Source: Dehalococcoidia bacterium (lineage in GTDB: Bacteria; Chloroflexota; Dehalococcoidia; Lucifugimonadales; Australimonadaceae). Taken from it: a stretch of 64,000 nucleotides of DNA. The notes beneath the pieces were generated by a model. That model made no database searches and was not told where the DNA came from. It saw only the letters and a program-made list of their open reading frames with translations. The stretch lies in the NCBI GenBank assembly GCA_022449765.1, contig JAKUPZ010000003.1:92441-156440 (forward strand). The letters are read 5' to 3'. The position numbers and the translations under genes are program-made. The stretch's first letter is position 1. Each line of letters opens with the position of its first letter. Below, one piece after another: positions 1,425 to 47,332 of this stretch.

Positions 1425-2576
1425 ATGGTCAGGTCAAGGATTAGTACGAAACCTTTAAAGATCGCATTAGTCTCTCCTTATGATTTGATGACTCCAGGAG
1501 GAGTGAATGACCATGTGTCGAATTTAGCTACTCAACTCAGACGCAAAGGGCATTATGTGACTATAGTGGCCCCGGCTTCAGGGGTCAGTAGTTACAAGGA
1601 AGGTACGCATCTCACAGGGCGAGCTATTCCTTTTCCAAGTGGCGGGTCGGTTGCAAGAATTACTTTGTCGCTGTCGGTTTTTTCGGATATTCGCAGGTTG
1701 CTAGATGAACAACAGTTTGATGTGATTCATTTACACGAGCCAATGGTTCCTTTGCTACCACTGGTGACTTTAGGTTTTTCCAAGTCAGTTAATATCGCGA
1801 CTTTTCATGCATTTCAAGGAACAAGATTAAATCGTTTCTGGAGCCTTTTTACCCGTGGGCTGTTCAATAAATTAGATTGTCACATTGCTGTTTCTGCTCC
1901 TGCGCGTGAATTTGTATCAAAATATTACCCAGCAGAGTATGAAATCATCCCTAATGGTGTTGATCTAGATCGGTTTTCAGGGAAGAACTCATTAAATAAA
2001 TTTAAAGATGGGAAAGTAAATATTCTATTTCTGGGCCGTATGGAGAAGCGAAAAGGGTTTAAATACTTATTGAGCGCTTATCTCCGGACTAAGAAGCAAT
2101 TCCCTGATATTCGTTTGATTGTTGCTGGTGGTACCCAGCCTTTGAAAGAATTAAGGCCTATGCTCAAATCTGATACTAATTTGGATATAGAGTGGGTTGG
2201 TCAAATTTCAGACTCGGATGTTCCGAAGTATTACCATTCAGCTGATATTTTTTGTGCGCCTAATACGGGGAATGAAAGTTTTGGTATTGTCCTCTTGGAG
2301 GCTATGGCATCAGGAAAACCGATTATTGCATCTAAGATAGACGGATTTCTAGAAGTAATGGAAAACGATAAGGAAGGGGTATTTTGCGACCCTGAAAATG
2401 AAGAAGAGTTGGAAGGCGCTTTAAAGAAACTTATTAAGGACGCGAAGCTTCGAGCGAGTATGGGTAAATCTGGTCGCTTAACTGCAAAAAAATACAGCTG
2501 GGATATCATATCCGATGAAATTGAAGACACTTACTTTAAAGCCATAAGTAAAAAACACTCAAAAGTAGGGAAATAG
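1425..2576 (+). CDS. GT4-family (GT-B) glycosyltransferase, PimA-like
   Basis: 383 aa. N-terminus LKIALVSPYDLMTPGGVNDHV...VTIVAPA resembles PimA-type enzymes. C-terminal ESFGIVLLEAMASGKPIIAS is the GT4 E-x7-E region. Confidence 0.8.
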   Translation: MVRSRISTKPLKIALVSPYDLMTPGGVNDHVSNLATQLRRKGHYVTIVAPASGVSSYKEGTHLTGRAIPFPSGGSVARITLSLSVFSDIRRLLDEQQFDVIHLHEPMVPLLPLVTLGFSKSVNIATFHAFQGTRLNRFWSLFTRGLFNKLDCHIAVSAPAREFVSKYYPAEYEIIPNGVDLDRFSGKNSLNKFKDGKVNILFLGRMEKRKGFKYLLSAYLRTKKQFPDIRLIVAGGTQPLKELRPMLKSDTNLDIEWVGQISDSDVPKYYHSADIFCAPNTGNESFGIVLLEAMASGKPIIASKIDGFLEVMENDKEGVFCDPENEEELEGALKKLIKDAKLRASMGKSGRLTAKKYSWDIISDEIEDTYFKAISKKHSKVGK

Positions 2577-3169
2577 TGAAGATACCTGTTATTCGCACTC
2601 ATGCGCGTGGTCTAGTTACTAAATTTTTCAGTAATCCGATTGCTAAAATTTTGATTGCTTTAAAAATTTCACCCAATTTGATAACAGTGATAGGTTTTTT
2701 AGTTACCTCCTATTCGGCTTACCTAATTGCGCAAGGGGATTTAGTCCTAGGCGGGTCAATAATGTTTGTAGGTGCGGGTATGGACATGTTTGATGGCGCA
2801 GTTGCTCGAATGGCTGGCCGTGAATCTGTTTTTGGAGCCTTTTTCGATTCGGTAATGGATCGGCTGGGCGAAGCAATGACTTTATTTGGCCTGCTTGCTT
2901 ATTTTGTAGCAGAAGGCGACAGTAACGGGATTTATCTTTCGTTTGGAGCTCTTACGGTTTCAATGATGGTTAGCTACTTGCGAGCTCGAGCAGAGGGCTT
3001 ATCAATTCCTGGAGATAAAGGAATTTTAGGTAGGCCTGAGAGAGTTGTGGTGCTTGGGGTAACCCTCATCGTTGGCCTCCCTTCGTGGGGTCTAGGTATC
3101 ATAGTGGGTTTTGGATTAGTAACTATCTTGCAACGTGGAATACATGTTTGGAAAAACGCTAATCGTTAA
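2576..3169 (+). CDS. CDP-alcohol phosphatidyltransferase (candidate phosphatidylinositol-phosphate synthase)
   Basis: 197-aa polytopic ORF with DMFDGAVARMAGRESVFGAFFDSVMDRLGE, matching D-G-x2-A-R-x8-G-x3-D-x3-D. GTG start overlaps the upstream TAG by 1 nt. Confidence 0.85.
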   Translation: MKIPVIRTHARGLVTKFFSNPIAKILIALKISPNLITVIGFLVTSYSAYLIAQGDLVLGGSIMFVGAGMDMFDGAVARMAGRESVFGAFFDSVMDRLGEAMTLFGLLAYFVAEGDSNGIYLSFGALTVSMMVSYLRARAEGLSIPGDKGILGRPERVVVLGVTLIVGLPSWGLGIIVGFGLVTILQRGIHVWKNANR

Positions 3170-3192
3170 AGCAATCTATGGAAAGGCAAAGC

Positions 3193-3408
3193 TTATCCTA
3201 GACAGGAAGGGCAGAAGCTCACCAAATGTATTTTGCATACATCGGTATTCTTACTTGTTACAGAGAGCTTCCGTAATGGCTTATCCCAATAAGGACTTTT
3301 GCATTTAGCACATACCCTAGGGTCTCGCGCATTGTTTCTTGCGGCCCATACATGCTCGCACCGGGTGCAAGTGTATTGGAATATCGTGATTTCTTCTTTG
3401 GGTGCCAT
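3193..3408 (-). CDS. small Cys-rich zinc-ribbon protein (function unknown)
   Basis: 71 aa with CTRC...CAKC plus a C-terminal C...CPSC. Divergent from the znu operon. Confidence 0.55.
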   Translation of the reverse strand: MAPKEEITIFQYTCTRCEHVWAARNNARDPRVCAKCKSPYWDKPLRKLSVTSKNTDVCKIHLVSFCPSCLG

Positions 3409-3416
3409 AACTAAAG

Positions 3417-3478
3417 TATATACCTATAGGTAGACAACTAGTCTATACCTCCTTATACTATGTACCTATGAGTATATA
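3417..3478. promoter_or_regulatory. pair of inverted 16-bp operator-like boxes (TATATACCTATAGGTA / TACCTATGAGTATATA)
   Basis: Box 1 (3417-3432) contains the perfect 12-bp palindrome TACCTATAGGTA (3421-3432). Box 2 (3463-3478) is its reverse complement with 2 mismatches. Centres are about 42 bp apart. A half-box TATATACC recurs at 3514-3521. Confidence 0.4.
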
Positions 3479-3604
3479 GTTAGGGTTTTAGGTTGGTGCC
3501 TTCTTTTCCTACTATATACCAAGTTTACTTTTGTAGCACTGGGTTATCTCCTCCCGCTGCCAAGCTTTAGCTTGATTATCCCAGTGCTACTCATAAGAGG
3601 TGCA

Positions 3605-4666
3605 ATGAATAGTAAAGTTTCGGTTATTCGATATTTGTACATGGGCTTAGCCTCTGTATTATTTTTAAGTTTCTTTTTGATTGTTTCTGCTTGTTCAAGT
3701 GATTCTTCTGAAGAGGTATCTGAGGAAATAGCTCAAGAGGTTAAACAAGTAAATGTTGTAACAACGATCTACCCGCTTGAGTATTATGCCACTAGAATTG
3801 GCGGGGAATATGTAAAGGTCACATCCCTTGCAGGGGTGGGAGTCGATGCTCATACAATTGAGTTAACACCAAGTCAGTTGCAAGGTATGCAAAATGCTGA
3901 CCTGATGTTTGCTAATGGCTTAATGATGGAGCCTTGGTTTGAGCGTGCACTAACATCACTGGGGGCCGAAGCCGTGGCGAAGACCCATTATTTGTCAGAG
4001 TTTGAGTTTACCAAGCTTGAATTCGAAGAAGGCCATGATGACCACGATGAGCACAAAGATGGCCACGACGACCATGATGAGCACAAAGATGGCCACGACG
4101 ACCACGAGGGTCATGAAGGACATGCCCACGGCGAGTTTGATCCTCACATCTGGTTGGATCCTCTTTATGCTATAAAGCAATCAAAGGCTGTGCTAGACGC
4201 ATTAAGCGCGAAAGACCCAAGTAATATGGATTACTATTTGGGGAACTACCAGAAGCTCGAGCAAGATTTGCAATCATTGCACCAGGACTACACCAATGGG
4301 TTGTCGAGCTGTAAACACGAAGAATTTGTTATTTCGCATGCTGCCTTCGGGTATATTGCTGCCAGATACAACCTAGAGCAGATTGAAATCGCTGGTCTTT
4401 CGGCTGAAGCTTCACCCTCTGCGGCTCGATTAGCAGAAATTGCGGAGCGCGTTGGTAAGCTAGGTCTCGGAAGCGTACTAGTTGAGGCGCTGCAGTGGGA
4501 TAATTCGGTTTCTCAAACATTAGCGAATGAATCGAATCTGCAGGCTTTGCCAGTACATGTAATTGGCACCGTTACGAGAGATGAGTTGAATGAGCATGCT
4601 GATTACATGGGATTGATGAGGAATAACCTTAAATCCTTACAAACAGCTATGGAATGTAGCGCCTAA
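3605..4666 (+). CDS. znuA: metal ABC transporter substrate-binding lipoprotein (ZnuA-like, cluster-9 SBP) with a His/Asp-rich loop
   Basis: ATG at 3605 is preceded by AAGAGGTG; the track ORF starts at TTG 3572. Signal peptide with lipobox-like LIVSAC. Loop HDDHDEHKDGHDDHDEHKDGHDDHEGHEGHAHGEFDPH typical of Zn-specific ZnuA. Followed by an ATPase and a permease. Confidence 0.85.
   Translation: MNSKVSVIRYLYMGLASVLFLSFFLIVSACSSDSSEEVSEEIAQEVKQVNVVTTIYPLEYYATRIGGEYVKVTSLAGVGVDAHTIELTPSQLQGMQNADLMFANGLMMEPWFERALTSLGAEAVAKTHYLSEFEFTKLEFEEGHDDHDEHKDGHDDHDEHKDGHDDHEGHEGHAHGEFDPHIWLDPLYAIKQSKAVLDALSAKDPSNMDYYLGNYQKLEQDLQSLHQDYTNGLSSCKHEEFVISHAAFGYIAARYNLEQIEIAGLSAEASPSAARLAEIAERVGKLGLGSVLVEALQWDNSVSQTLANESNLQALPVHVIGTVTRDELNEHADYMGLMRNNLKSLQTAMECSA
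4031..4120 (+). repeat. in-frame 30-nt tandem repeat (about 3 copies) encoding GHDDHDEHKD units
   Basis: ggccatgatgaccacgatgagcacaaagat / ggccacgacgaccatgatgagcacaaagat / ggccacgacgaccacgagggtcatgaagga read directly. Confidence 0.9.
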
Positions 4667-4704
4667 CTAAATATCGCATAAGGTGCATAAATATTTTGTA
4701 GAAT

Positions 4705-4738
4705 AAAGAGATACCCTCAAAATCGAGGGTATCTCTTT
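4705..4738 (+). terminator. 14-bp perfect stem-loop between znuA and znuC (intra-operon attenuator/terminator candidate)
   Basis: aaagagataccctc-aaaatc-gagggtatctcttt. The 3' arm ends in a short T run. Lies 39 nt after the znuA stop. Confidence 0.5.
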
Positions 4739-4805
4739 ATGATATAGGGTTGACCAGAGATAACCCCTGCGCACACAACAACGCTGGAGTGTATAGTCTG
4801 AATTA

Positions 4806-5561
4806 ATGGATACGATAATAGAATTTGAAAATATTACATTTTCGTATGGAGAGATTCCAGCAGTTAAGGAGATCTCTCTAAAGGTTGATCGTGGTGGATT
4901 CGTAGCCATAGTTGGGCCAAATGGTAGCGGTAAGAGCACTTTGATTAAGCTAGCCTTGGGTTTATTGAAGCCTCAAGAAGGCAAGAGTTTACTTTTCAAT
5001 ACAAATGTTGAGGAATTTTCGGCTTGGGAGCGAATTGGATACGTTCCTCAAGTTGCAAGTGGAATGCATGCAAGGCTACCAATGACGGTTTCTGAAATAG
5101 TTGCTCAAGGCCGTTATATAGGGTTTTCCCCGAAGTCATTTTGGACTTCATCGGCGGGAATAGATATTGATAATGCCTTAGATGTTGTGGGAGCAAAACA
5201 TTTGAAAGAGCGCAGAATTGGAGAGCTTTCTACGGGGCAGCAGCAAAGAGTTTTGGTTGCAAGAGCACTTGTTAAAGCCCCTGATATCTTGATGTTGGAT
5301 GAGCCTATCGGGGGAGTGGACGTTGACGGTGAGGAGCGGATTTATGAAATCATTCGAGAGCTCAACCAGCAAGGGATAACAATAGTTATGGTGTCTCACG
5401 ATATAGGAGCTGTAATGCGTGAGGCGAAAACAGTAGCTTGTATAAATCAAACATTAGCTTTCCATGGGGCACCTCATGAATTAACGCGAGACGAACTTGC
5501 AAATCTGTACGGGTTTCCAGTTGAAGTGCTCTTACATGATGCGCTGCATGAGCATAGATAA
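4806..5561 (+). CDS. znuC: metal ABC transporter ATP-binding protein (ZnuC-like)
   Basis: Walker A GPNGSGKST, signature LSTGQQQR, Walker B ILMLDEP. Confidence 0.88.
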   Translation: MDTIIEFENITFSYGEIPAVKEISLKVDRGGFVAIVGPNGSGKSTLIKLALGLLKPQEGKSLLFNTNVEEFSAWERIGYVPQVASGMHARLPMTVSEIVAQGRYIGFSPKSFWTSSAGIDIDNALDVVGAKHLKERRIGELSTGQQQRVLVARALVKAPDILMLDEPIGGVDVDGEERIYEIIRELNQQGITIVMVSHDIGAVMREAKTVACINQTLAFHGAPHELTRDELANLYGFPVEVLLHDALHEHR

Positions 5562-5567
5562 GGTGAG

Positions 5568-6389
5568 ATGCTAATGCTTCCTTCAATATTGCAATACGAT
5601 TTTATGGTGAGAGCCTTAATTGGGGGTATCCTTGCTGGCGGAATTGCCCCGGTGTTAGGTGCTTTTCTCGTGTTGCGCAGGTATTCATTAATTGCTGAAA
5701 CCCTTGCGCATGTCGGTTTATTAGGAGTGGCTATAGGCCTTGCCACGAGCACTTACCCTACGATAACCACGTTTATTGCAGTGACAATAGCAGCGATTTT
5801 TATTGAGCGATTGCGGGTTAGCGGAAAATTGCCTGGAGATATTGCATTGGCAGTAGTTTTGTATGCAACTATGGCTGCTGCAGTGGTCATTATTAATAGT
5901 GTCAGGGGATTTAATCTGGATTTGTGGGGGTTTCTTTTCGGTTCAATTCTAACTATATCGGCAACAGATGTTTGGCTATTATTGCTACTGGCAGTGCTGG
6001 TTCTTACCTTCATAACAATGTTTTACCCAGAGCTTTCAATGACCGCATTTGATGATGATTTAGCTAAAGTTTCTGGTGTTCGAGTGGATTTATTGAACCT
6101 AGGGTTGGCCATTTTGACGGCAGCGGTAGTCACGTTATCAATGCGAGTCTTAGGGGTTCTCCTGGTGGGAGCACTTATTGTTATCCCCTTTTTAATAGGG
6201 CAGACACTTTGCTCGGGTCTCAGGAAATCACTGGGCGTGGCGTCATTAGCGGGAAGCATCAGTGCGGTAATAGGGTTATTCATTTCATTTTATGCGGATC
6301 TTGTTGCAGGTGGGTCGATAGTTTTGACCGCGGTAACGTTGCTTTTAATGGCTCAGTTATGGAAAAAGCTCAAGCAACGAGCTGATTAA
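5568..6389 (+). CDS. znuB: metal ABC transporter permease (ZnuB-like)
   Basis: 273-aa polytopic membrane protein directly after znuC. ABC-3 family look. Confidence 0.85.
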   Translation: MLMLPSILQYDFMVRALIGGILAGGIAPVLGAFLVLRRYSLIAETLAHVGLLGVAIGLATSTYPTITTFIAVTIAAIFIERLRVSGKLPGDIALAVVLYATMAAAVVIINSVRGFNLDLWGFLFGSILTISATDVWLLLLLAVLVLTFITMFYPELSMTAFDDDLAKVSGVRVDLLNLGLAILTAAVVTLSMRVLGVLLVGALIVIPFLIGQTLCSGLRKSLGVASLAGSISAVIGLFISFYADLVAGGSIVLTAVTLLLMAQLWKKLKQRAD

Positions 6390-6399
6390 AGGAGCGGAA

Positions 6400-7350
6400 T
6401 TGAAAAGAGGAATAGGAATTACTGCCATGGGCGGTAATAGCAATGAAGTCCTGCAGCGAATAAAAAATTACGAAGTAAGAGGAATTAACGCTGCGTGGCT
6501 CACTGTTGGCAGTGCGAGTCTCGATGGAATAACAATTATGGCAGCCGCGGGCTTAGTAACAGAGAAAGTACTACTTGGAACATCTATAGTTCCGAGCTGG
6601 GGGCGGCATCCCGTTGTCGCTGCACAGCAAACCCAAGTTGCTTCTCAATTATCCAATAATCGTTTCCGGTTTGGAGTTGGGCCTAGTCATATAGCTAGTA
6701 TGCAAAAGGTTTTTGGCGCTGACTACAGGACGCCTTTAACTGCGCTAAGAGAATATTTGATTATAGTTAAGACGCTTCTGGATACAGGCTCAGTTAAATT
6801 TAACGGTAAAATTTATGACGCTGACGTTGCTCTACCTGCTCCAGTGCCAGGGGTTCCAGTATTGGCATCTGCCTTGAGAGCAAAGTCTTATGAACTTTGC
6901 GGAGAATTAGCGGACGGTGCAATTAGTTGGGTTTCGCCAGATATATATTTAAAAGAAGTGGCATTGCCTGCAATTGCAAAAGGTGCTGAGGCGGTAGGAA
7001 GAGAAGCACCTCCTTTGATTGCACACGTACCAATTTGTGTAGATGAAAATGTTGAGGATGTAAGAAGCGCAGCGCGTAATCAATTAGCGCATTATCCTCG
7101 GTCCCCGTTTTATCAGGCGATGTTTGCCCAAGCAGGATTCCCCGAAGCTGCAGAAACATCAAATTGGAGTGATGGAATGATTGAGGCAGTAGTTTTTTCA
7201 GGGAATGAAGAAAAAATCGAAGAGAGAATAGAAAAGCTTTTTGAGTACGGTGTTACTGAAATAATTTTTTCTATAGTAACGACAGAGGCAGATCCAGATT
7301 CTTCGCGAGAGCGAAGCTTAGAATTGCTGTCAAAAGTAGCTCAAGATTGA
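6400..7350 (+). CDS. luciferase-like monooxygenase (LLM) class, probably F420-dependent oxidoreductase
   Basis: 316 aa. TTG start 5 nt after AAGGAG. TIM-barrel LLM pattern (FRFGVGPSH..., C-terminal ...EIIFSIV). Confidence 0.75.
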   Translation: MKRGIGITAMGGNSNEVLQRIKNYEVRGINAAWLTVGSASLDGITIMAAAGLVTEKVLLGTSIVPSWGRHPVVAAQQTQVASQLSNNRFRFGVGPSHIASMQKVFGADYRTPLTALREYLIIVKTLLDTGSVKFNGKIYDADVALPAPVPGVPVLASALRAKSYELCGELADGAISWVSPDIYLKEVALPAIAKGAEAVGREAPPLIAHVPICVDENVEDVRSAARNQLAHYPRSPFYQAMFAQAGFPEAAETSNWSDGMIEAVVFSGNEEKIEERIEKLFEYGVTEIIFSIVTTEADPDSSRERSLELLSKVAQD

Positions 7351-7412
7351 CCGGCTTTATAGTCAAGCCTATGATCATAAAAAATTAGTTTGGGGCAGGG
7401 GTTAGTCAAGGT

Positions 7413-7655
7413 ATGGCAACAACGAAGGCATTTGTATTAATTGAGACCGCAGTGGGTAAGACTAAAGATGTAGTGGCTTCACTACTAGAGCTTTCAGGCG
7501 TCGCATCAGTAGATGTGGTTACAGGACCTTACGATATTATCTGTATGGTCCAAGCTGAGGACTTAAGTTCAGTTGGGGACACTGTGACAGGAAGTGTTCA
7601 TACTATCGGTGGGATAGTACGTACCGTAACTTGCCTGGCAGTAGGCAGTGAATAA
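7413..7655 (+). CDS. stand-alone Lrp/AsnC ligand-binding (RAM) domain protein
   Basis: 80 aa, AFVLIETAVGKTKDVVASL...GPYDIICMVQAEDL pattern. No HTH domain. Confidence 0.7.
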   Translation: MATTKAFVLIETAVGKTKDVVASLLELSGVASVDVVTGPYDIICMVQAEDLSSVGDTVTGSVHTIGGIVRTVTCLAVGSE

Positions 7656-7685
7656 TCGCTAATCTTAAATGATTGGGGTACCGCC

Positions 7686-8033
7686 ATGGTCGATTGGAAT
7701 TGCATTTTTTGTGATATATCCCAAGGGAAAATTCCCGCTACTAAGATATTTGAAGATGATACGGTTTTTGCAATTTTGGACATTGCTCCTAAGGCCCCAG
7801 AGCATATCCTTGTGATACCTCATGCTCATATAGAAGATTTAGTTTTTTCTTCTGTGCGTGAGATAAATGCAGTTGTGCATTGCATGAAGAAGGCCCCTCA
7901 GATAGCTAATAATAGAGGGTTGTCTCATTCGGGGTATCGGCTAGTTGTAAATCAAGGAATCGATTCGGGCCAAGAGGTTCCCCATTTTCATTTACATATC
8001 TTGGGTGGCCGCAAACTTCAAACTATGGGATAG
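7686..8033 (+). CDS. HIT-family (histidine triad) nucleotide hydrolase
   Basis: 115 aa ending with the triad HFHLHILGG. Confidence 0.88.
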   Translation: MVDWNCIFCDISQGKIPATKIFEDDTVFAILDIAPKAPEHILVIPHAHIEDLVFSSVREINAVVHCMKKAPQIANNRGLSHSGYRLVVNQGIDSGQEVPHFHLHILGGRKLQTMG

Positions 8034-8035
8034 CA

Positions 8036-8617
8036 ATGGATTTTGAGTTACCTAAATCACTGCAAGAGCATTTAGCGGCTTTGCCTAAAAATTTAAGCCT
8101 ACATATAGGCAGAGTTAGAGGAATAGCTAAAGAGCTCGCCCAAATGCATAACTTAGATGTGGAACTTGCTGATTTAACGGCTGCTGCGCATGATGTTGCA
8201 CGGCATTTGCCTGGCGGGAAGCTTATCGAAGAGGCCGAAAGATTAAATATTCCGGTAGGGGAATTTGAAAAAGCCGCACCGATAGTTCTGCATGGACCTG
8301 TTGGAGCGACTTGGTTGCGTCAAGAAGGTGTTTTACTAGACCCGGAGTTGTTTGATGCTGTTTATTGGCATACAAGCGCCCATCCTGATCTTAGCCCAAT
8401 AGGTAAAGTAGTTTTTGTGGCAGACAAAATAGATCCGGCAAAAGCTAAGGCCTACCCCTTTCAATCTAGTGTTATTGAGGCGGTCGCGAATAGCCTGGAT
8501 GAAGGAGTTTTAGCTTTCCTAGATGGAGTCATTAGGGAACACGTTGATCATTGTCGCCTTGTTCACCCAGTGAGCATAAATACCCGGAATAGGTTGATAA
8601 TAGAGAGCAGTTGCTAA
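8036..8617 (+). CDS. HD-domain phosphohydrolase, YqeK-like
   Basis: 193 aa with AAAHDVARH and later ...WHTSAHPD...FVADKIDP, typical of YqeK-type HD proteins. 2-nt gap after the HIT gene. Confidence 0.65.
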   Translation: MDFELPKSLQEHLAALPKNLSLHIGRVRGIAKELAQMHNLDVELADLTAAAHDVARHLPGGKLIEEAERLNIPVGEFEKAAPIVLHGPVGATWLRQEGVLLDPELFDAVYWHTSAHPDLSPIGKVVFVADKIDPAKAKAYPFQSSVIEAVANSLDEGVLAFLDGVIREHVDHCRLVHPVSINTRNRLIIESSC

Positions 8618-8621
8618 ATCC

Positions 8622-8635
8622 AGAAAATATGTTCT
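8622..8635. promoter_or_regulatory. LexA (Cheo/Gram-positive type) box, one mismatch
   Basis: AGAAAATATGTTCT versus aGAAC-N4-GTTCt. Confidence 0.45.
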
Positions 8636-8653
8636 AATTTTGATTGCTTTTAA

Positions 8654-8667
8654 AGAACTTATGTTCT
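8654..8667. promoter_or_regulatory. LexA (Cheo/Gram-positive type) box, perfect
   Basis: AGAACTTATGTTCT is a perfect GAAC-N4-GTTC palindrome with extended A/T flanks. Lies 35 nt upstream of ATG 8702. Confidence 0.6.
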
Positions 8668-8701
8668 ATTATCTCCAATATTACTTCTATTGGGGGTTTT
8701 T

Positions 8702-9307
8702 ATGGCGCTTGGAGTGAGTCTTCAAAAAGAGATGGTTACCGCGATTGCTCGTGATGTTTTAGCTGAAAAGGGGACAATTTTCAGCGTAGAAACATGTGAA
8801 GGAGAAAAATACCTGCGCGATGTTGTAGTTCAATTAGAATTATTAATTTTGGGCTTCAATGTCATTTCAAAAACATCACTTCTAAGATTGACGAGGAAAA
8901 CGGAAGCTTTGGTTCAAGGCAATACCCTTCATGCCCGCCTGCAAAATTTGCCGCTGGATGGGCTTTGGTCAAGTAATGATTATGGTGTCTGTATAGGTAG
9001 CTCTGAGGTTCAATATGCCAGGCATGATCAGCTTCAGGATATTGAAGGTTCTTTTAGTTTTATACAGGTAGAGCAATCTCATCATTTAAGTGATTTTGAT
9101 ATCAATCGAATTAAGCTTTTAGCGAGAGCTTCTGGTGCGACTGTTGTATTTTTTGGTCAAAGCACAGGGGTGAACTCTTCTTTTGGCCAATTGATTCAAC
9201 GTAATAAAAGAGCCCAGTTTGAAATGAGAGGGAAAGAGCATTTCATGCTCTTTGAAACAGCGATTGAGGATCCGCAAGAAAAAGAAACCTATTTGAGAGC
9301 CTCTTAA
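8702..9307 (+). CDS. hypothetical protein (candidate SOS-regulated), no recognisable domain
   Basis: ATG 8702 lies 4 nt after GGGGG; the track ORF starts at TTG 8690. 201 aa. No P-loop, no S24 peptidase motifs, no HTH seen. Confidence 0.6.
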   Translation: MALGVSLQKEMVTAIARDVLAEKGTIFSVETCEGEKYLRDVVVQLELLILGFNVISKTSLLRLTRKTEALVQGNTLHARLQNLPLDGLWSSNDYGVCIGSSEVQYARHDQLQDIEGSFSFIQVEQSHHLSDFDINRIKLLARASGATVVFFGQSTGVNSSFGQLIQRNKRAQFEMRGKEHFMLFETAIEDPQEKETYLRAS

Positions 9308-9367
9308 AAATATCGGTATTTAAATAATTGAAAATAATGGCTTAGGCGTAAATATTTGAGGGAGAAT

Positions 9368-9688
9368 ATGCGTAATTATATAAAATCTTACAGACGTCGT
9401 AATGAACCGTTCCTAGATTCACTACCTGAACAAATGCATTATTCAGACACTGGTTGCGAGGCATCTTTGTCGTGCCTGTCATGCCCATTGCCCAAGTGCA
9501 AGTATGATGATCCTGTGTGGTATCAGGCATATAAGCGTAGGGATAGGGATTTAGAATTATTGAATATGTATCGATCTGACAAATTAAGTGCCTTTGAGAT
9601 CGCTAACCACTTTGGAGTAAGCCCCAGAACTGTACATAGGGCTGTTAAGAGAGCACAGGGATATAAAGAGGGTATAAAAGTCGCGTAA
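9368..9688 (+). CDS. small Cys4-cluster + C-terminal helix-turn-helix protein (putative transcription regulator)
   Basis: ATG 9368 follows GAGGGAG. Cys cluster C-x5-C-x2-C-P-x3-C (CEASLSCLSCPLPKC). C-terminal HTH LSAFEIANHFGVSPRTVHRAVKRA. Confidence 0.6.
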   Translation: MRNYIKSYRRRNEPFLDSLPEQMHYSDTGCEASLSCLSCPLPKCKYDDPVWYQAYKRRDRDLELLNMYRSDKLSAFEIANHFGVSPRTVHRAVKRAQGYKEGIKVA

Positions 9689-9786
9689 CCACCACGCAAC
9701 AACCGATGACTTCTGTGTAGCGTAAAAGTATGTTATCAATACTGTTGAAACTATAACCAAATAAAAGACTGATTAGAGAGGGACAC

Positions 9787-10560
9787 ATGAGACTCGAAGG
9801 GAAAGTAGCTATTATTACAGGAGCCGGTCGAAATATAGGTGAAGCGGTAGGTCATTTATTTGCAGAAGAGGGTGCAAGAGTAGCACTTGTTGATGTCCGC
9901 TTTGCGGCTGTGGAAGAAGTATCGCATGCGATTAATGCAAAACACCCAGGGGCTGCGGTTGCTTTACAGTGCGATGTCTCTTCTGCATTGCAGGTAGAAA
10001 AAATGGTTTCGGACACAGTCTCTTCTTTTGGGAGAATTGACATCCTAGTTAATAATGCTGCTATCACTGATCATACTCCTGTATTAGACCTACCCGAAGA
10101 GGAATGGGATCAGATACTGGGAGTTACACTGAAAAGTGTATTTTTGACTTGCAAATATGCAGGCCGTCAGCTACGAGAACAAGGTCAAGGCGGGAAGATT
10201 ATTAACGTAGCATCTACTTCTGGGCATCGTGGGCGTGCTGATGCAACGGCTTATTCTGCTGCAAAAGGAGGGTTGCTCAATTTAACTCGCTCTCTTGCTA
10301 TTCAATTTGCAGAATTTGGGGTACGAGTTAATTCATTGACACCGAATCGGATTGGCTCTCCAGTTGGCAAAGAGGAAGTTCCCGCTGAGGGGAGAGGTAT
10401 AACTAACTTAGTGGGTCGTCCTGGAGTACCTATGGATATTGCCAATGCAGCTCTATTTTTAGCTTCTAATGAGTCTGATTTTATTGCGGCTGCGGATATT
10501 TTAGTAGATGGGGGCTCACTTGCCGGGGCACTTCAAACTCCGTTTTCCCCTAAACAGTAA
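9787..10560 (+). CDS. SDR-family oxidoreductase (FabG-like)
   Basis: TGAGRNIGEA cofactor motif, NNAA, catalytic YSAAKGG. Confidence 0.85.
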   Translation: MRLEGKVAIITGAGRNIGEAVGHLFAEEGARVALVDVRFAAVEEVSHAINAKHPGAAVALQCDVSSALQVEKMVSDTVSSFGRIDILVNNAAITDHTPVLDLPEEEWDQILGVTLKSVFLTCKYAGRQLREQGQGGKIINVASTSGHRGRADATAYSAAKGGLLNLTRSLAIQFAEFGVRVNSLTPNRIGSPVGKEEVPAEGRGITNLVGRPGVPMDIANAALFLASNESDFIAAADILVDGGSLAGALQTPFSPKQ

Positions 10561-10571
10561 GGGTTATGCTG

Positions 10572-11201
10572 TTAGCCTTTGACCATTGCTATAACTTGGT
10601 CGGTAGTTCTCACCCGCGCCATAAATGGGAAAATGCGATTCATGAATTGCTCATGGTTATCTTGATTTCCTGATCTGCAAGCATCGCTTACTACAACGAT
10701 ATTAAAATCAGAATCCCTTGCACAATACGCGGTAGAGGCAATCCCAACTTCAGTAGCTCCTCCACATAAAATGATAGTATCGATGCCCCTAGTACGAAGG
10801 CTTAGCTCTAGATGCGTTTGAAAAAAAGCATTCCATCGATGCTTGGCTATTATGTAATCATCTTGCCTAGGCTGTAGTTCCGGGATAATCTCGGAGCTCC
10901 AATCTCCTGCATAAACTAAAAGATAGGGCTTAAAAGGTTTCTCTTCGGGGTCAGACCAAGGCTCCCCTGAGATGCCTGTGTCGGAATAGAGATTGGCTGA
11001 ATCTTTTCCGTCATGCCGATGATCTGCACGAGCATAGTAGACAGGGACGTTAGCGCTGCGAGCTGCGGAAAGAACTTTTTGACAATTATCGACAAAGGGC
11101 TTAGTGATTCTCTCTTGCTCTTTAGATGTATGAACATACGCATTGAGCATGTCAAAAAATACTAATGCAGTCTTTTGCGGGTCAAGTACGTTGTAACTCA
11201 A
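10572..11201 (-). CDS. isochorismatase-family cysteine hydrolase
   Basis: TTG start at 11201 lies 5 nt after GGAGGG. Has TALVFFDM..., KHRWNAF..., and the C-terminal ILCGGATEVGIASTA catalytic-Cys region. The upstream part of the track ORF is tRNA read-through. Confidence 0.78.
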   Translation of the reverse strand: MSYNVLDPQKTALVFFDMLNAYVHTSKEQERITKPFVDNCQKVLSAARSANVPVYYARADHRHDGKDSANLYSDTGISGEPWSDPEEKPFKPYLLVYAGDWSSEIIPELQPRQDDYIIAKHRWNAFFQTHLELSLRTRGIDTIILCGGATEVGIASTAYCARDSDFNIVVVSDACRSGNQDNHEQFMNRIFPFMARVRTTDQVIAMVKG

Positions 11202-11250
11202 ATCACCCTCCAGCTGGATCCTATTAGGCCAATTAGGGAGCAAGGCACAA

Positions 11251-11327
11251 TGGTCGGGGTGCCCGGATTCGAACCGGGGGCCTCGCGCACCCCATGCGCG
11301 CGCGCTACCGAGCTGCGCCACACCCCG
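11251..11327 (-). tRNA. tRNA-Pro (anticodon GGG)
   Basis: Reverse complement folds as CGGGGTG-TG-GCGC/AGCTCGGTA/GCGC-G-CGCGC/AT GGG GT/GCGCG-AGGCC-CCCGG/TTCGAAT/CCGGG-CACCCCG-A-CCA. Confidence 0.9.
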
Positions 11328-11453
11328 AAACAATACAAGTCAGATTAGCATAGTATGAGAAGCGCTGCAGCTTAATTGCAGCTTCATTTTGCATGCCTAA
11401 GTTATAATTAATACGGTATTAAAAGCGAACTGCATGTCTGGAGTGTTAACAAT

Positions 11454-12558
11454 ATGGACGAACTGAAGCAAAAGCTTACTGATTTGCGTGAGGTAGTGAC
11501 TGGCATTATGGTGCGCCTTTGACATACCTGCTCTTGAAATAGAAGCTGGCAAATTAGAACACGAGACTTTAGATCCTAATTTTTGGAATAATTCTGGTGA
11601 CGCTCAAAGCGTAATGAGAAAGTTAGCACAATTGCGCTCTACTATAGATGGGTGGGTAGATTTCCAGTCACGTGTTTTATCTACCATTGACTTGGTTGAT
11701 ATGGCCATTGATTCCGAGGATTTCTCATTAGAGAGTGAGATTGCTCAGGAGGCTGAGATCCTTTTTGAAGATTTTCAGGCTCGTGAATTCCAATTAGTTT
11801 TTTCTGGCGAGTACGATGATCATAGCGCGATATTGGCGATTCATGCAGGCGCAGGAGGCACTGATTCTCAGGATTGGACTGAGATGCTTCTTAGAATGTA
11901 CACCCGGTGGGGAGATCAGAATGGTTACAAGACGCAAATATTAGATCTATCTGAGGGAGAAGAAGCTGGTATAAAGAGCGCTACGATTGAAATTTCAGGT
12001 CCCAATGCCTATGGATATGCAAAAACTGAAAGCGGGGTTCATAGGCTGGTTCGCTTATCCCCCTTTGATTCTTCTCACGCGCGACATACATCATTTGCCT
12101 TGGTTGAAGTTTTACCTGAGGTTGATAATGACGTGGAGGTACAAATCAATGCAGATGACATTGAAATGGACGTATTTAGAGCTAGCGGGGCAGGAGGCCA
12201 GAGCGTTCAAAAGAATTCTACCGCAGTTCGGATTCGTCATCTTCCATCAGGATTAGTGGTTTCTTGTCAAAATGAAAGGTCGCAGCTACAGAATCGTGAA
12301 GCAGCATTAAAAATCCTTCGCTCTCGCTTAATTGAAATTGAGATAAAGAGGAAAGAACAAGAAAAAGCTTCCTTGAAAGGCGAGCATATTACTGCAGGCT
12401 GGGGCAATCAGATTCGGAGCTATGTTCTTCATCCCTATAAAATGGTTAAGGATCACCGAACAGGCTTTGAATCTACCAACCCAGAATTAGTATTAGATGG
12501 AGAGCTTTCAGATCTGATGAAAGCGTATCTTTTAGCAAGCGTAAATAGGATTGATTAA
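11454..12558 (+). CDS. prfB: peptide chain release factor 2, with programmed +1 frameshift at CTT TGA C (11517-11523)
   Basis: Frame-0 MDELKQKLTDLREVVTGIMVRL stops at TGA 11520-11522. The +1 frame continues DIPALEIEAGKLEHETLDPNFW... into track ORF 11614-12558, which has SPF and GGQ (ASGAGGQSVQ) motifs. GGTG lies 3 nt before CTT. Confidence 0.92.
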
Positions 12559-12565
12559 CGATAGA

Positions 12566-12642
12566 TGGTGGGCCACCCTGGACTCGAACCAGGGACCTCA
12601 GTCTTATCAGGACTGCGCTCTAACCACCTGAGCTAGTGGCCC
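12566..12642 (-). tRNA. tRNA-Ile (anticodon GAU)
   Basis: Reverse complement GGGCCACTAGCTCAGGTGGTTAGAGCGCAGTCCTGATAAGACTGAGGTCCCTGGTTCGAGTCCAGGGTGGCCCACCA. Cloverleaf with CT-GAT-AA loop and encoded CCA. Confidence 0.92.
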
Positions 12643-12661
12643 TTGGGAACTGAGCCCTAAT

Positions 12662-12697
12662 TTATTTAGAGACCAGCCTTGGCTGGTCTCTAAATAA
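12662..12697 (-). other. 17-bp perfect hairpin in the 16S to tRNA-Ile spacer (probable RNA-processing structure)
   Basis: ttatttagagaccagcc-tt-ggctggtctctaaataa. No U-tract on either strand. Confidence 0.6.
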
Positions 12698-12701
12698 TGC
12701 T

Positions 12702-12728
12702 CTTAACGAGTGAATAGTGAAAGGAAAG
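12702..12728 (-). other. 3' half of the 16S-bracketing processing helix
   Basis: Reverse-complementary to 14459-14485: 27 positions with 1 A-C mismatch and 1 G-U pair. Confidence 0.65.
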
Positions 12729-12859
12729 ACTTTAGTTCGACGTTAGTCCTGTGAAGGTCTGGAACAGTGTTGTTCAGCAAGGGAGCAAAGCTCAACCAAT
12801 TGCTTCACAAGAGGCTATTCCCCCAACGTGTCGACCTAGGTTTCCCCAAAGGGACTCCC

Positions 12860-14364
<1,505 letters not shown>

Positions 14365-14458
14365 CAAGTTTGGATCTTAATTGATCCAATAATGTCTATT
14401 TGACAAGGGTGCATGTCATAAATGACATGCTAAGCATACCCCTTAGGGCATGCTGGCG

Positions 14459-14485
14459 CTTTCCTTCCACTATTCACTTGTTAAG
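14459..14485 (-). other. 5' half of the 16S-bracketing processing helix
   Basis: ctttccttccactattcacttgttaag pairs with 12702-12728 in the precursor. Confidence 0.65.
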
Positions 14486-14521
14486 GAGCAAATAAATATT
14501 CCCCCGGAGGGGAACCCATCT

Positions 14522-14550
14522 ATCGTACAGAAATTTAAGGTTCTCGTCAA
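14522..14550 (-). promoter_or_regulatory. candidate sigma70-type rRNA promoter (-35 TTGACG, 17-nt spacer, -10 TACGAT)
   Basis: Minus strand reads TTGACG-agaaccttaaatttctg-TACGAT, about 150 nt upstream of the mature 16S 5' end. AT-rich tract upstream. Confidence 0.45.
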
Positions 14551-14586
14551 TAAGATAAGGAATGGAGAACACAGTAAAATTAGTAA

Positions 14587-15213
14587 TTAAAAGATTAAAT
14601 TTCTTACCTTTGCCAAAATCGTTGAATGGATTTCTTGAATACCCAATTCTGCATTGATAACGAGCCATGTTTCAGGAGAACGAGAAGCTAGTTTTAGAAA
14701 GCCTGATCGGACTTTATGATGGAATGCAATGTTGGCATTTTCAAATCTTGGTTGATTTGCCTTTGCTCCATCTCGTTGAGAAGCACGTTGAAGGCTGATT
14801 TCAGGTGGCGCATCAAGTAGTATTGTAAGCTCTGGAGTTAGCCCGTCTTTCGCCAGATTATTTGCCGAATTTACATACCGCATAGGGACATTTCGCGCAA
14901 ATCCTTGATAGACAGTCGTAGAATCGGCATATCTGTCTAATAATATGTCGAAACCTGCATTTAGTTTCGGTTTTAAAACAGTCCGAACTAGCTCTGCTCG
15001 AGCTGCGGTGAATAATAATAATTCAGATGCTGGTTCTAGAGATCGGGTGTTATCCATCAACCAAGCTCGAAGATACTCACCCAAGGGAGACCCTCCAGGT
15101 TCTCTGAGCTGTAATACCTTTCGACCTAAACCTTCAAGCGAAAGGCGTAATAATTCAATCTGGGTGCTTTTGCCAGTACCTTCACCACCTTCAAAAGTAA
15201 TAAATAAACTCAT
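14587..15213 (-). CDS. tmk: thymidylate (dTMP) kinase
   Basis: MSLFITFEGGEGTGKSTQ P-loop, DRY motif (LLDRYADST). 208 aa. Confidence 0.92.
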   Translation of the reverse strand: MSLFITFEGGEGTGKSTQIELLRLSLEGLGRKVLQLREPGGSPLGEYLRAWLMDNTRSLEPASELLLFTAARAELVRTVLKPKLNAGFDILLDRYADSTTVYQGFARNVPMRYVNSANNLAKDGLTPELTILLDAPPEISLQRASQRDGAKANQPRFENANIAFHHKVRSGFLKLASRSPETWLVINAELGIQEIHSTILAKVRNLIF

Positions 15214-38269: not shown

Positions 38270-38548
38270 TTGATTCTAAATTATTTAATAATAGTAATTG
38301 TTTTTTCGATCACTGGGTTTTCTTCTGTCCTTTTCAGTAGTTTTCTTCTTGGGGACGTTTTTGGACTAGAAGGTAATTTCATTTCAGGATCTTGGCTATA
38401 TCGAGGAATGTACTTATTATTCATCCCACCTTCCTACTCGGTCTTGCTGGTCTTGGTGGGTACAGTATTTGGTCGCAGAACATATTTTCTGCGTCGCGTA
38501 AAGCTTTTATGGGGGAGAATTATCCCTGTTAGATGGCTAAAACTTTAA
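38270..38548 (+). CDS. small hypothetical membrane protein
   Basis: 92 aa, TTG start, two hydrophobic helices and a basic C-terminus. Weak support. Confidence 0.35.
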   Translation: MILNYLIIVIVFSITGFSSVLFSSFLLGDVFGLEGNFISGSWLYRGMYLLFIPPSYSVLLVLVGTVFGRRTYFLRRVKLLWGRIIPVRWLKL

Positions 38549-47318: not shown

Positions 47319-47332
47319 CGCACATTTGTTCT
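47319..47332. promoter_or_regulatory. LexA-like box upstream of recA (one half-site mismatch)
   Basis: The plus strand reads CGCACATTTGTTCT and the recA strand reads AGAACAAATGTGCG. GAAC-N4-GTgC. About 125 nt upstream of the recA ATG. Confidence 0.35.

Follow-up and report, generated by a model that had tools for sequence, protein, structure and literature searches.

The stretch of DNA analysed here, referred to as the window, comprises 64,000 nucleotides of contig JAKUPZ010000003.1 from a Dehalococcoidia bacterium (assembly GCA_022449765.1). Within it, two plus-strand genes follow a promoter that carries two candidate sites for the SOS repressor LexA. The first gene, here called X (8702-9307), encodes a 201-residue pseudo-terminase, homologous to the N-terminal ATPase domain found in the phage terminase large subunit (TerL) but catalytically dead. 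The second, here called Cys4-HTH (9368-9688), encodes a 106-residue protein in which the motif C-x5-C-x2-CP-x3-C is followed by a C-terminal helix-turn-helix (HTH) resembling sigma region 4 (Pfam HTH_11, 3.9e-7). We consider it likely that the pair is a LexA-regulated operon and a domesticated phage relic, in which X is dead as an enzyme but selected.

Both LexA boxes lie in the 84-bp gap between the stop codon of an HD-domain gene (8617) and the ATG of X (8702), 32 bp apart centre to centre, and neither is assigned a strand. Box 1, AGAAAATATGTTCT (8622-8635), has 9 of the 10 specified bases and ends 8 nt before a plus-strand -35-like hexamer, TTGCTT (8644-8649), which matches TTGACA at three of six positions. 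Box 2, AGAACTTATGTTCT (8654-8667), matches AGAAC-N4-GTTCT perfectly, as no other site in the genome does. TTGCTT and the plus-strand -10 hexamer TATTAT (8667-8672; five of six) are 17 bp apart, and box 2 fills this spacer, the final T of the box being the first base of the -10. Downstream, a hairpin in the X leader (8671-8697) overlaps the Shine-Dalgarno sequence and was flagged as terminator-like; compensatory changes are seen in 3 of its 10 pairs among three orthologues. The hairpin probably begins ahead of the point where transcription is predicted to start (about 8680), so that its relevance is doubtful and it is unlikely to matter.

The genome under study (35 contigs, 1.61 Mb, 96.8% complete) encodes one LexA (G000:C34:24015-24668, 216 residues), with LexA_DNA_bind (2e-16) and Peptidase_S24 (1.1e-26) domains. 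The lexA promoter reads TTGACA...TTTACGAT-cAGAACTAACGTTCGt, which places a perfect box, cAGAACTAACGTTCGt, 15 nt before the lexA start codon. A LexA-like box, AGAACAAATGTGCG, is also found in the window on the minus strand at 47319-47332, outside the X operon and 3 nt upstream of TTGAGG-N17-TATAAA, near recA (Pfam, 2e-129). Like box 1, which stands 8 nt from its -35, the recA box lies upstream of the -35 rather than in the spacer. An earlier note on this DNA, made from the sequence alone, had read the boxes in front of X as LexA sites. The positions, the 32-bp spacing, the 84-bp gap and the related box near recA that it gave were all confirmed in the sequence, and two of the checks that it proposed, locating lexA and scanning the promoters, came out in its favour: LexA is complete and its own promoter carries a perfect box, and the genome-wide site scan ranks the two X boxes first. 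Phylogenetic footprinting, described below, also bears out this reading. GAAC-N4-GTTC is said to have been described as the LexA motif of Dehalococcoides, by Fernandez de Henestrosa et al. in 2002. It is the established LexA motif in Bacillus, Mycobacterium and the Gram-positives generally (PMC3323433). Boxes 1 and 2 are thus, as predicted from sequence, very probably LexA operators, and from operator architecture and conservation we infer, on sound grounds, that the product of the X promoter would be damage-induced. The credible LexA regulon of this genome consists of lexA, recA and the X-HTH operon.

The boxes owe their credibility to placement and conservation, not to counts. GAAC-N4-GTTC with at most one mismatch occurs 15 times in the 64-kb window, where about 21 occurrences are expected, so that there is no enrichment by count. 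In the 1.61-Mb genome AGAAC-N4-GTTCT has one perfect and 33 one-mismatch matches, the corresponding numbers in shuffled sequence being 0-6 and 47-76. Of these 34 matches only six fall between genes, and boxes 1 and 2 together with the site at the lexA promoter make up half of the six. We put the genome-wide chance of finding two such sites in any intergenic gap of about 84 bp at roughly 2e-3. Other intergenic near-matches were not counted among the regulon members, since the genes that they precede look by eye like housekeeping genes (L25, ATP synthase beta, HemB, HflX, RsmH, ThiG). The best non-seed match to the position weight matrix, CAGAACATATTTTCTG (window 38476-38491), is internal to the gene for a 92-residue DUF6787 membrane protein, which precedes a thiolase gene, and is probably due to chance. 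AGAAC-N4-GTTCT with at most one mismatch is scarcer in the genome than in the shuffles (34 vs 47-76). Selection against stray LexA sites would be one explanation; another would be codon and dinucleotide effects, which mononucleotide shuffles lose.

Conservation of the promoter was seen at two depths. Boxes 1 and 2 are 100% unchanged in five orthologous loci, although the leaders have drifted there and the proteins share only 54-67% identity; both hexamers are also unchanged across the orthologous loci. The box-in-spacer layout recurs in distant homologues with 27-36% identity and 66-71% GC. Two of them have stronger promoter elements. In one (L009) the promoter consists of a box, a canonical TTGACA at the position of the TTGCTT of X, and a perfect AGAACACCCGTTCT abutting TATGAT, and a further box, the third, precedes the start codon; in the other (L010) AGAACATTCGTTCT abuts TATCAT. 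The GTTC-TATNAT junction formed by box 2 and the -10 of X is therefore repeated in both.

The identity of X was resolved by structure prediction together with a genome-wide profile search, because searches with the sequence alone failed. X has no match in Pfam, NCBIfam, PHROGs, the PDB sequences (phmmer) or the PDB by profile search, and an exhaustive phmmer search of 1.84 billion representatives returned only 18 relatives. Many of these are 438-459 residues long, with X aligning to their first 185 or so residues. The AlphaFold2 model of X, built on the alignment of the relatives, has a predicted local distance difference test score (pLDDT) of 85.5 and a predicted template modelling score (pTM) of 0.85. 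Foldseek matched this model to the T4 gp17 ATPase (2o0j; E 7e-6, query-normalised TM-score (TMq) 0.65, root-mean-square deviation 3.6), to 6z6d (TMq 0.65), and to the D6E, Sf6 gp2, HK97 and P74-26 terminases. Against a viral library it gave 197 matches, nearly all of them TerL, the best with an E of 2.3e-9. A profile of the X family, run against 401 Chloroflexota genomes, found proteins in 140 of them, spread over 92 of 217 genera, mostly in single copy and with E values down to 1e-95. The proteins so found are live TerL, with the Walker A motif ARQGGKNELS, the Walker B motif LLEIDESQ or LLEVDEAQ, and the nuclease motif YVAGIDLAGE (in general form RQxGKN, DEAQD and xxDxxGE). They pass Pfam Terminase_6C, one of them precedes an SPP1-type portal gene, and a small gene matching PHROG small terminases (TerS) sits before live TerL. 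In addition, live TerL matches X directly (tblastn, E 1e-7). X is therefore a derivative of the terminase large-subunit ATPase domain, with a degenerate P-loop NTPase fold. The protein that the earlier note could not place is thus placed, by a TerL ATPase fold and by sequence homology to intact Chloroflexota terminases. The remark that X has no P-loop holds for the motif, which is absent, but not for the fold, and the recommended structure prediction with Foldseek did give a confident fold, though a known one.

Comparison with the live relatives shows what X has lost. At the Walker A position X reads CEGEKYLRD and the long dead forms read GSGVRE or QGGARE; in all of the 40+ live forms the motif is ARQGGKNELS. 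At the Walker B position X has IQVEQS, its orthologues VEES or VEGS, and other dead forms AVDA or VAEA, in place of the live motifs given above. The nuclease domain is missing from X. The long dead relatives keep that domain without its first catalytic Asp (AASVVLTR or VAALHVAQ; AGIDLAGE in the live counterpart). Because the Walker A Lys, the Walker B Asp and catalytic Glu, and the nuclease domain are all lost, X is, to judge from these residues, unable to package, translocate or cut DNA. Of the (Y)Q motif, X keeps the N-terminal Q; the long dead forms alone retain the Tyr, for which the window's genus has Leu, Phe or Thr. At X residues 124-129 (IQVEQS; window 9071-9088), the Glu-Gln that stands at the Asp-Glu of live TerL recalls a hydrolysis-dead E-to-Q state, but it is not conserved, the orthologues having EE or EG.

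Dead and live forms also differ at the C-terminus. The dead forms, whether of 440-460 or about 200 residues, all end in h-[AL]-[LRKIV]-[AV]-S-COOH (ALAS, AIAS, LRAS, LKVS), the tail of X being encoded at window 9287-9304, and live TerL ends in ...A-[KR]-G-S. Since the dead-form tail is kept in long and truncated forms alike, the nuclease domain was deleted internally and the extreme C-terminus retained. The conserved tail could be a docking peptide, a degradation tag, or the result of constraint from the start region of the downstream gene.

In a maximum-likelihood tree, 16 dead forms are split from 46 live forms by one branch with 100/100 support, which is consistent with one inactivation event. 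Among three genus-level lineages X has pN 0.19-0.27, pS 0.63-0.77 and dN/dS 0.16-0.19, the synonymous sites being near saturation, and its length is steady at 200-201 codons in all three. X is not a pseudogene in its clade and is under purifying selection. Full-length dead forms (438-459 residues) also stay intact, at 25-37% identity, and number at least 14.

The second gene, Cys4-HTH, is a downstream partner of X that the earlier note had missed. The spacer between the two genes (9308-9367, plus strand) is 60 nt long and contains the Shine-Dalgarno sequence GAGGGAG; across loci the gap is 39-62 nt. A terminator and promoter scan found no plus-strand terminator in the spacer and no conserved promoter. 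A promoter-like match at 9328-9356 was considered as an internal promoter for Cys4-HTH and rejected, the stretch in question being deleted in one relative (L002). Given the gap, the lack of a terminator and the lack of a conserved internal promoter, X and Cys4-HTH are predicted to form a two-gene operon with X first.

Cys4-HTH is the better conserved of the two proteins, with 55-61% identity to the same distant genomes in which X has 27-36%. Among the 401 genomes it has 35 strong, single-copy matches, all in the window's class. Of 30 fetched HTH loci, 23 have a LexA-type box, typically TAGAACAnnnGTGCTA, in the immediate promoter. With a background of about 0.39 matches per kb, or about 6% expected per 150 nt, the nominal binomial P is about 1e-22, a figure inflated by the kinship of the genomes. 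The AlphaFold2 model of Cys4-HTH has a pLDDT of 82.9 and three C-terminal helices. The five closest orthologues share an invariant N-terminus, RRR-x-EP...LPE, and a terminal Ala (VA, AA or GA), features that do not clearly extend to distant members of the class. Cys4-HTH is the conserved core of the module and is LexA-boxed class-wide. A literature search found no earlier description of Cys4-HTH as an SOS gene and, as far as we could find, none of a selected, catalytically dead terminase.

The locus varies among relatives. Genes in the relatives are crude open reading frame calls of our own, and three loci whose orientation had been misassigned (L020, L033 and L036) were disregarded. In a sister genus (G356), X is an N-terminal stub of about 75 codons ending in a stop, with boxes and HTH gene kept. 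In another member of the class (G195), only the dead nuclease half of X is left, as a 264-residue protein behind two boxes 32 bp apart, again with the HTH gene kept. Four genomes of the same order show further states: a partial ATPase domain with the HTH gene kept and no credible box seen (G396); an unrecognisable 172-residue gene behind two perfect boxes, with boxes and HTH gene kept (G159); and X absent, the HTH gene standing alone behind the boxes (G324 and G300). From this series, the boxes and the HTH gene are the persistent unit.

The origin of that unit is apparent from relatives that have a fuller gene set. The HTH gene precedes a portal gene in many genomes. In one (G008), an identical box, TAGAACATTTGTGCTA, heads two operons, TerS-TerL and HTH-portal-major head protein (phrog_212, 1.9e-72), the latter continuing into further structural genes. 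In this cluster (L071, G008:C1:203000-222000; reverse-complemented coordinates 2399-14952), TerS-TerL begins at 2399 and the HTH-portal operon at 7111. The HTH-portal operon includes a 669-residue protein, and an 812-residue, repeat-rich, surface-type protein is encoded between the two operons on the opposite strand. No integrase, replication or lysogeny genes are visible in the L071 cluster, which looks like a compact set resembling a gene transfer agent (GTA). In a test of the 30 best TerL matches, few boxes (7 of 32) stand directly upstream of TerL; in these genomes the box precedes the small TerS gene at the head of the operon. In three loci (L053, L054 and L072, from the 1.5-Mb single-contig genomes G096 and G021), the LexA-boxed HTH gene is followed by a portal gene that is truncated or split (303 residues, or 188 residues plus a fragment), and TerS-TerL is intact behind its own box. 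The particle set is therefore decaying in more than one lineage. In the genome under study, the GTA-like head and packaging set of relatives such as G008 is not present: tblastn found counterparts of only 2 of the 13 cluster genes of G008, TerL (as X) and HTH, and the genome, which is 96.8% complete, yielded no integrase, TerS, portal or capsid gene and no TerL other than X.

These findings suggest the following scheme. LexA dimers at boxes 1 and 2 would block RNA polymerase at a sigma-70-type promoter, box 1 being placed three helical turns upstream of box 2, and box 2 overlapping the -10. RecA-stimulated self-cleavage of LexA after DNA damage would then free the promoter. The operon is the remnant of the LexA-wired phage packaging and head gene set kept by relatives in the class, all other particle genes having been lost from this streamlined genome. 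The effector would be Cys4-HTH, a putative metal-binding, DNA-binding transcription regulator of the sigma-region-4 type, which probably derives from a late-gene activator of the element. Because purifying selection on X persists despite dead catalysis, X may act as a non-catalytic accessory, most likely a partner or modulator of Cys4-HTH, and this is the weakest step of the scheme. More tentatively, the pair may have become a host-domesticated SOS module that outlived every particle gene in streamlined marine genomes of the SAR202 type because Cys4-HTH, joined in this genus by X as non-catalytic partner, took on a cellular role in DNA damage, possibly as a second-tier SOS transcription regulator, in a class that carries a LexA-wired, GTA-like system of which the operon would be the minimal control unit. 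We think this extension possible without expecting it to prove correct.

Several observations weigh against a LexA-regulated operon in which a dead X is selected. The -35 of the X promoter is weak, and with three of six matches falls below the four-of-six threshold of a consensus scanner, which did not call the promoter. Foldseek of the Cys4-HTH model gives generic HTH and sigma-4 matches that are non-significant, and the match of the family to the PHROG annotation 'late transcriptional activator' is weak (E 1e-4 to 3e-3). The truncated trio to which X belongs stands on a very long stem branch of the tree, the dN of X is the highest among seven syntenic genes, and X is dispensable over longer times, being a stub, a half or absent in sister lineages. 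A partner role for X is speculative.

Some of these points are those expected if X were a functionless relic, the LexA promoter serving Cys4-HTH and X being a still-open, slowly decaying frame between them. The decay series, in which the HTH gene is kept as X shrinks from partial gene to stub to nothing, fits such a relic, as do the fast dN of X within the block, its long stem branch, the loss of every catalytic residue, and the much better conservation of the HTH protein. Neutral decay, however, is hard to reconcile with the low dN/dS, with synonymous sites near saturation, with a constant 200-201 codons in three lineages, or with a fold that is confident and compact, and it would not be expected to leave at least 14 dead forms of full length intact at such low identity. 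We therefore regard a functionless X as unlikely, and retain the view that X is dead but selected.

Two further explanations fare much worse. The boxes might be operators of another regulator, e.g., for autoregulation by Cys4-HTH, since such boxes always have the HTH protein encoded behind them. Yet the motif is also found at the lexA promoter and upstream of recA, it is the established Gram-positive-type LexA motif (PMC3323433), and relatives have the boxes in front of TerS-TerL operons too, at a distance of kilobases from the HTH gene, so that we give this explanation little credence. Equally improbable is that X is an SOS effector of a new kind without relatives, e.g., a division inhibitor or repair factor. 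It was as a previously undescribed SOS effector that X had first been proposed, and the SOS-type promoter and the lack of any Pfam, NCBIfam, PHROG or PDB-sequence match would favour this; fold and profile homology instead make X a terminase ATPase derivative. The accompanying exclusion of a RecA- or ImuA-like protein and of a membrane division inhibitor stands: SulA, RecA-like proteins, ImuA and membrane division inhibitors were rejected for X, with none of them among the top structural matches, no transmembrane segment, and no imuB or dnaE2 nearby. Finally, an active prophage or mobile satellite with a LexA switch is hardly credible, in spite of the phage ancestry of both genes and the existence of LexA-controlled temperate phages such as GIL01 (PMC4551915), given a single-copy locus in fixed synteny across genus-level and deeper relatives (AsnC-HIT-HD upstream, SDR-isochorismatase-prfB downstream) and a genome in which no integrase, portal, capsid, TerS or second TerL was found.

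The SOS regulons of the Chloroflexota, notably of the abundant marine SAR202, are almost unstudied; one orthologue of the X locus is labelled 'SAR202 cluster bacterium' at NCBI. As the only lineage-specific output of the damage response in this genome, the X-HTH operon offers a direct handle on the behaviour of damaged cells. The relatives supply a natural series, from intact LexA-controlled terminase, portal and capsid genes to full-length dead terminase, half-proteins, a stub, and the regulator alone. From this series one can follow how a phage-derived system is taken apart as genomes are streamlined, and which part of it selection retains.

Compared with functional TerL (T4 gp17, Sf6 gp2, HK97 and D6E; Pfam Terminase_6 plus Terminase_6C), X has the same fold (TMq 0.55-0.65) but consists of the N-terminal domain only, has its Walker residues replaced, lacks the nuclease, and occupies a fixed chromosomal position without TerS, portal or capsid genes. 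X resembles classical SOS effectors (SulA, YneA, SidA, ImuA) in being short (about 200 codons), under LexA control and devoid of obvious motifs; in the absence of a SulA or RecA structural match, a transmembrane segment, imuB or dnaE2, that likeness is rejected. Another parallel is GIL01, a temperate phage of Bacillus thuringiensis in which host LexA itself represses the phage promoters (PMC4551915, PMC6182141). In both cases phage genes are under host LexA, with Cheo-type boxes in the core promoters and no CI-type repressor. GIL01, however, is a complete inducible virus with the co-factors gp7 and gp6, whereas here two chromosomally inherited genes survive, one of them dead.

The likeness to GTAs lies in the relatives, where the boxes head a compact chromosomal set of TerS-TerL and HTH-portal-capsid genes without replication or lysogeny genes. 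LexA acts on the gene transfer agent RcGTA indirectly, whereas here the boxes lie in promoters. RcGTA has a dedicated activator, GafA (PMC6363796, PMC9638019), which Cys4-HTH recalls as a small sigma-like HTH protein next to structural genes. This genome differs in having no particle genes, and homology between Cys4-HTH and GafA is not claimed. Reuse of a terminase has a precedent in the Gifsy-1 prophage of Salmonella, whose terminase serves as a stress-induced tRNase (PMC11610961, a commentary). There, as with X, a terminase is kept by the host for a stress role other than packaging. The Gifsy-1 protein acts as a tRNase, we assume through its nuclease domain; X lacks both catalytic centres, so that any role of X must be non-enzymatic. 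In sum, LexA-controlled phage genes, domesticated particle systems with activators, and the reuse of terminases in stress are already known, and the operon of the window is a vestige whose value is that of the minimal retained unit of such a system.

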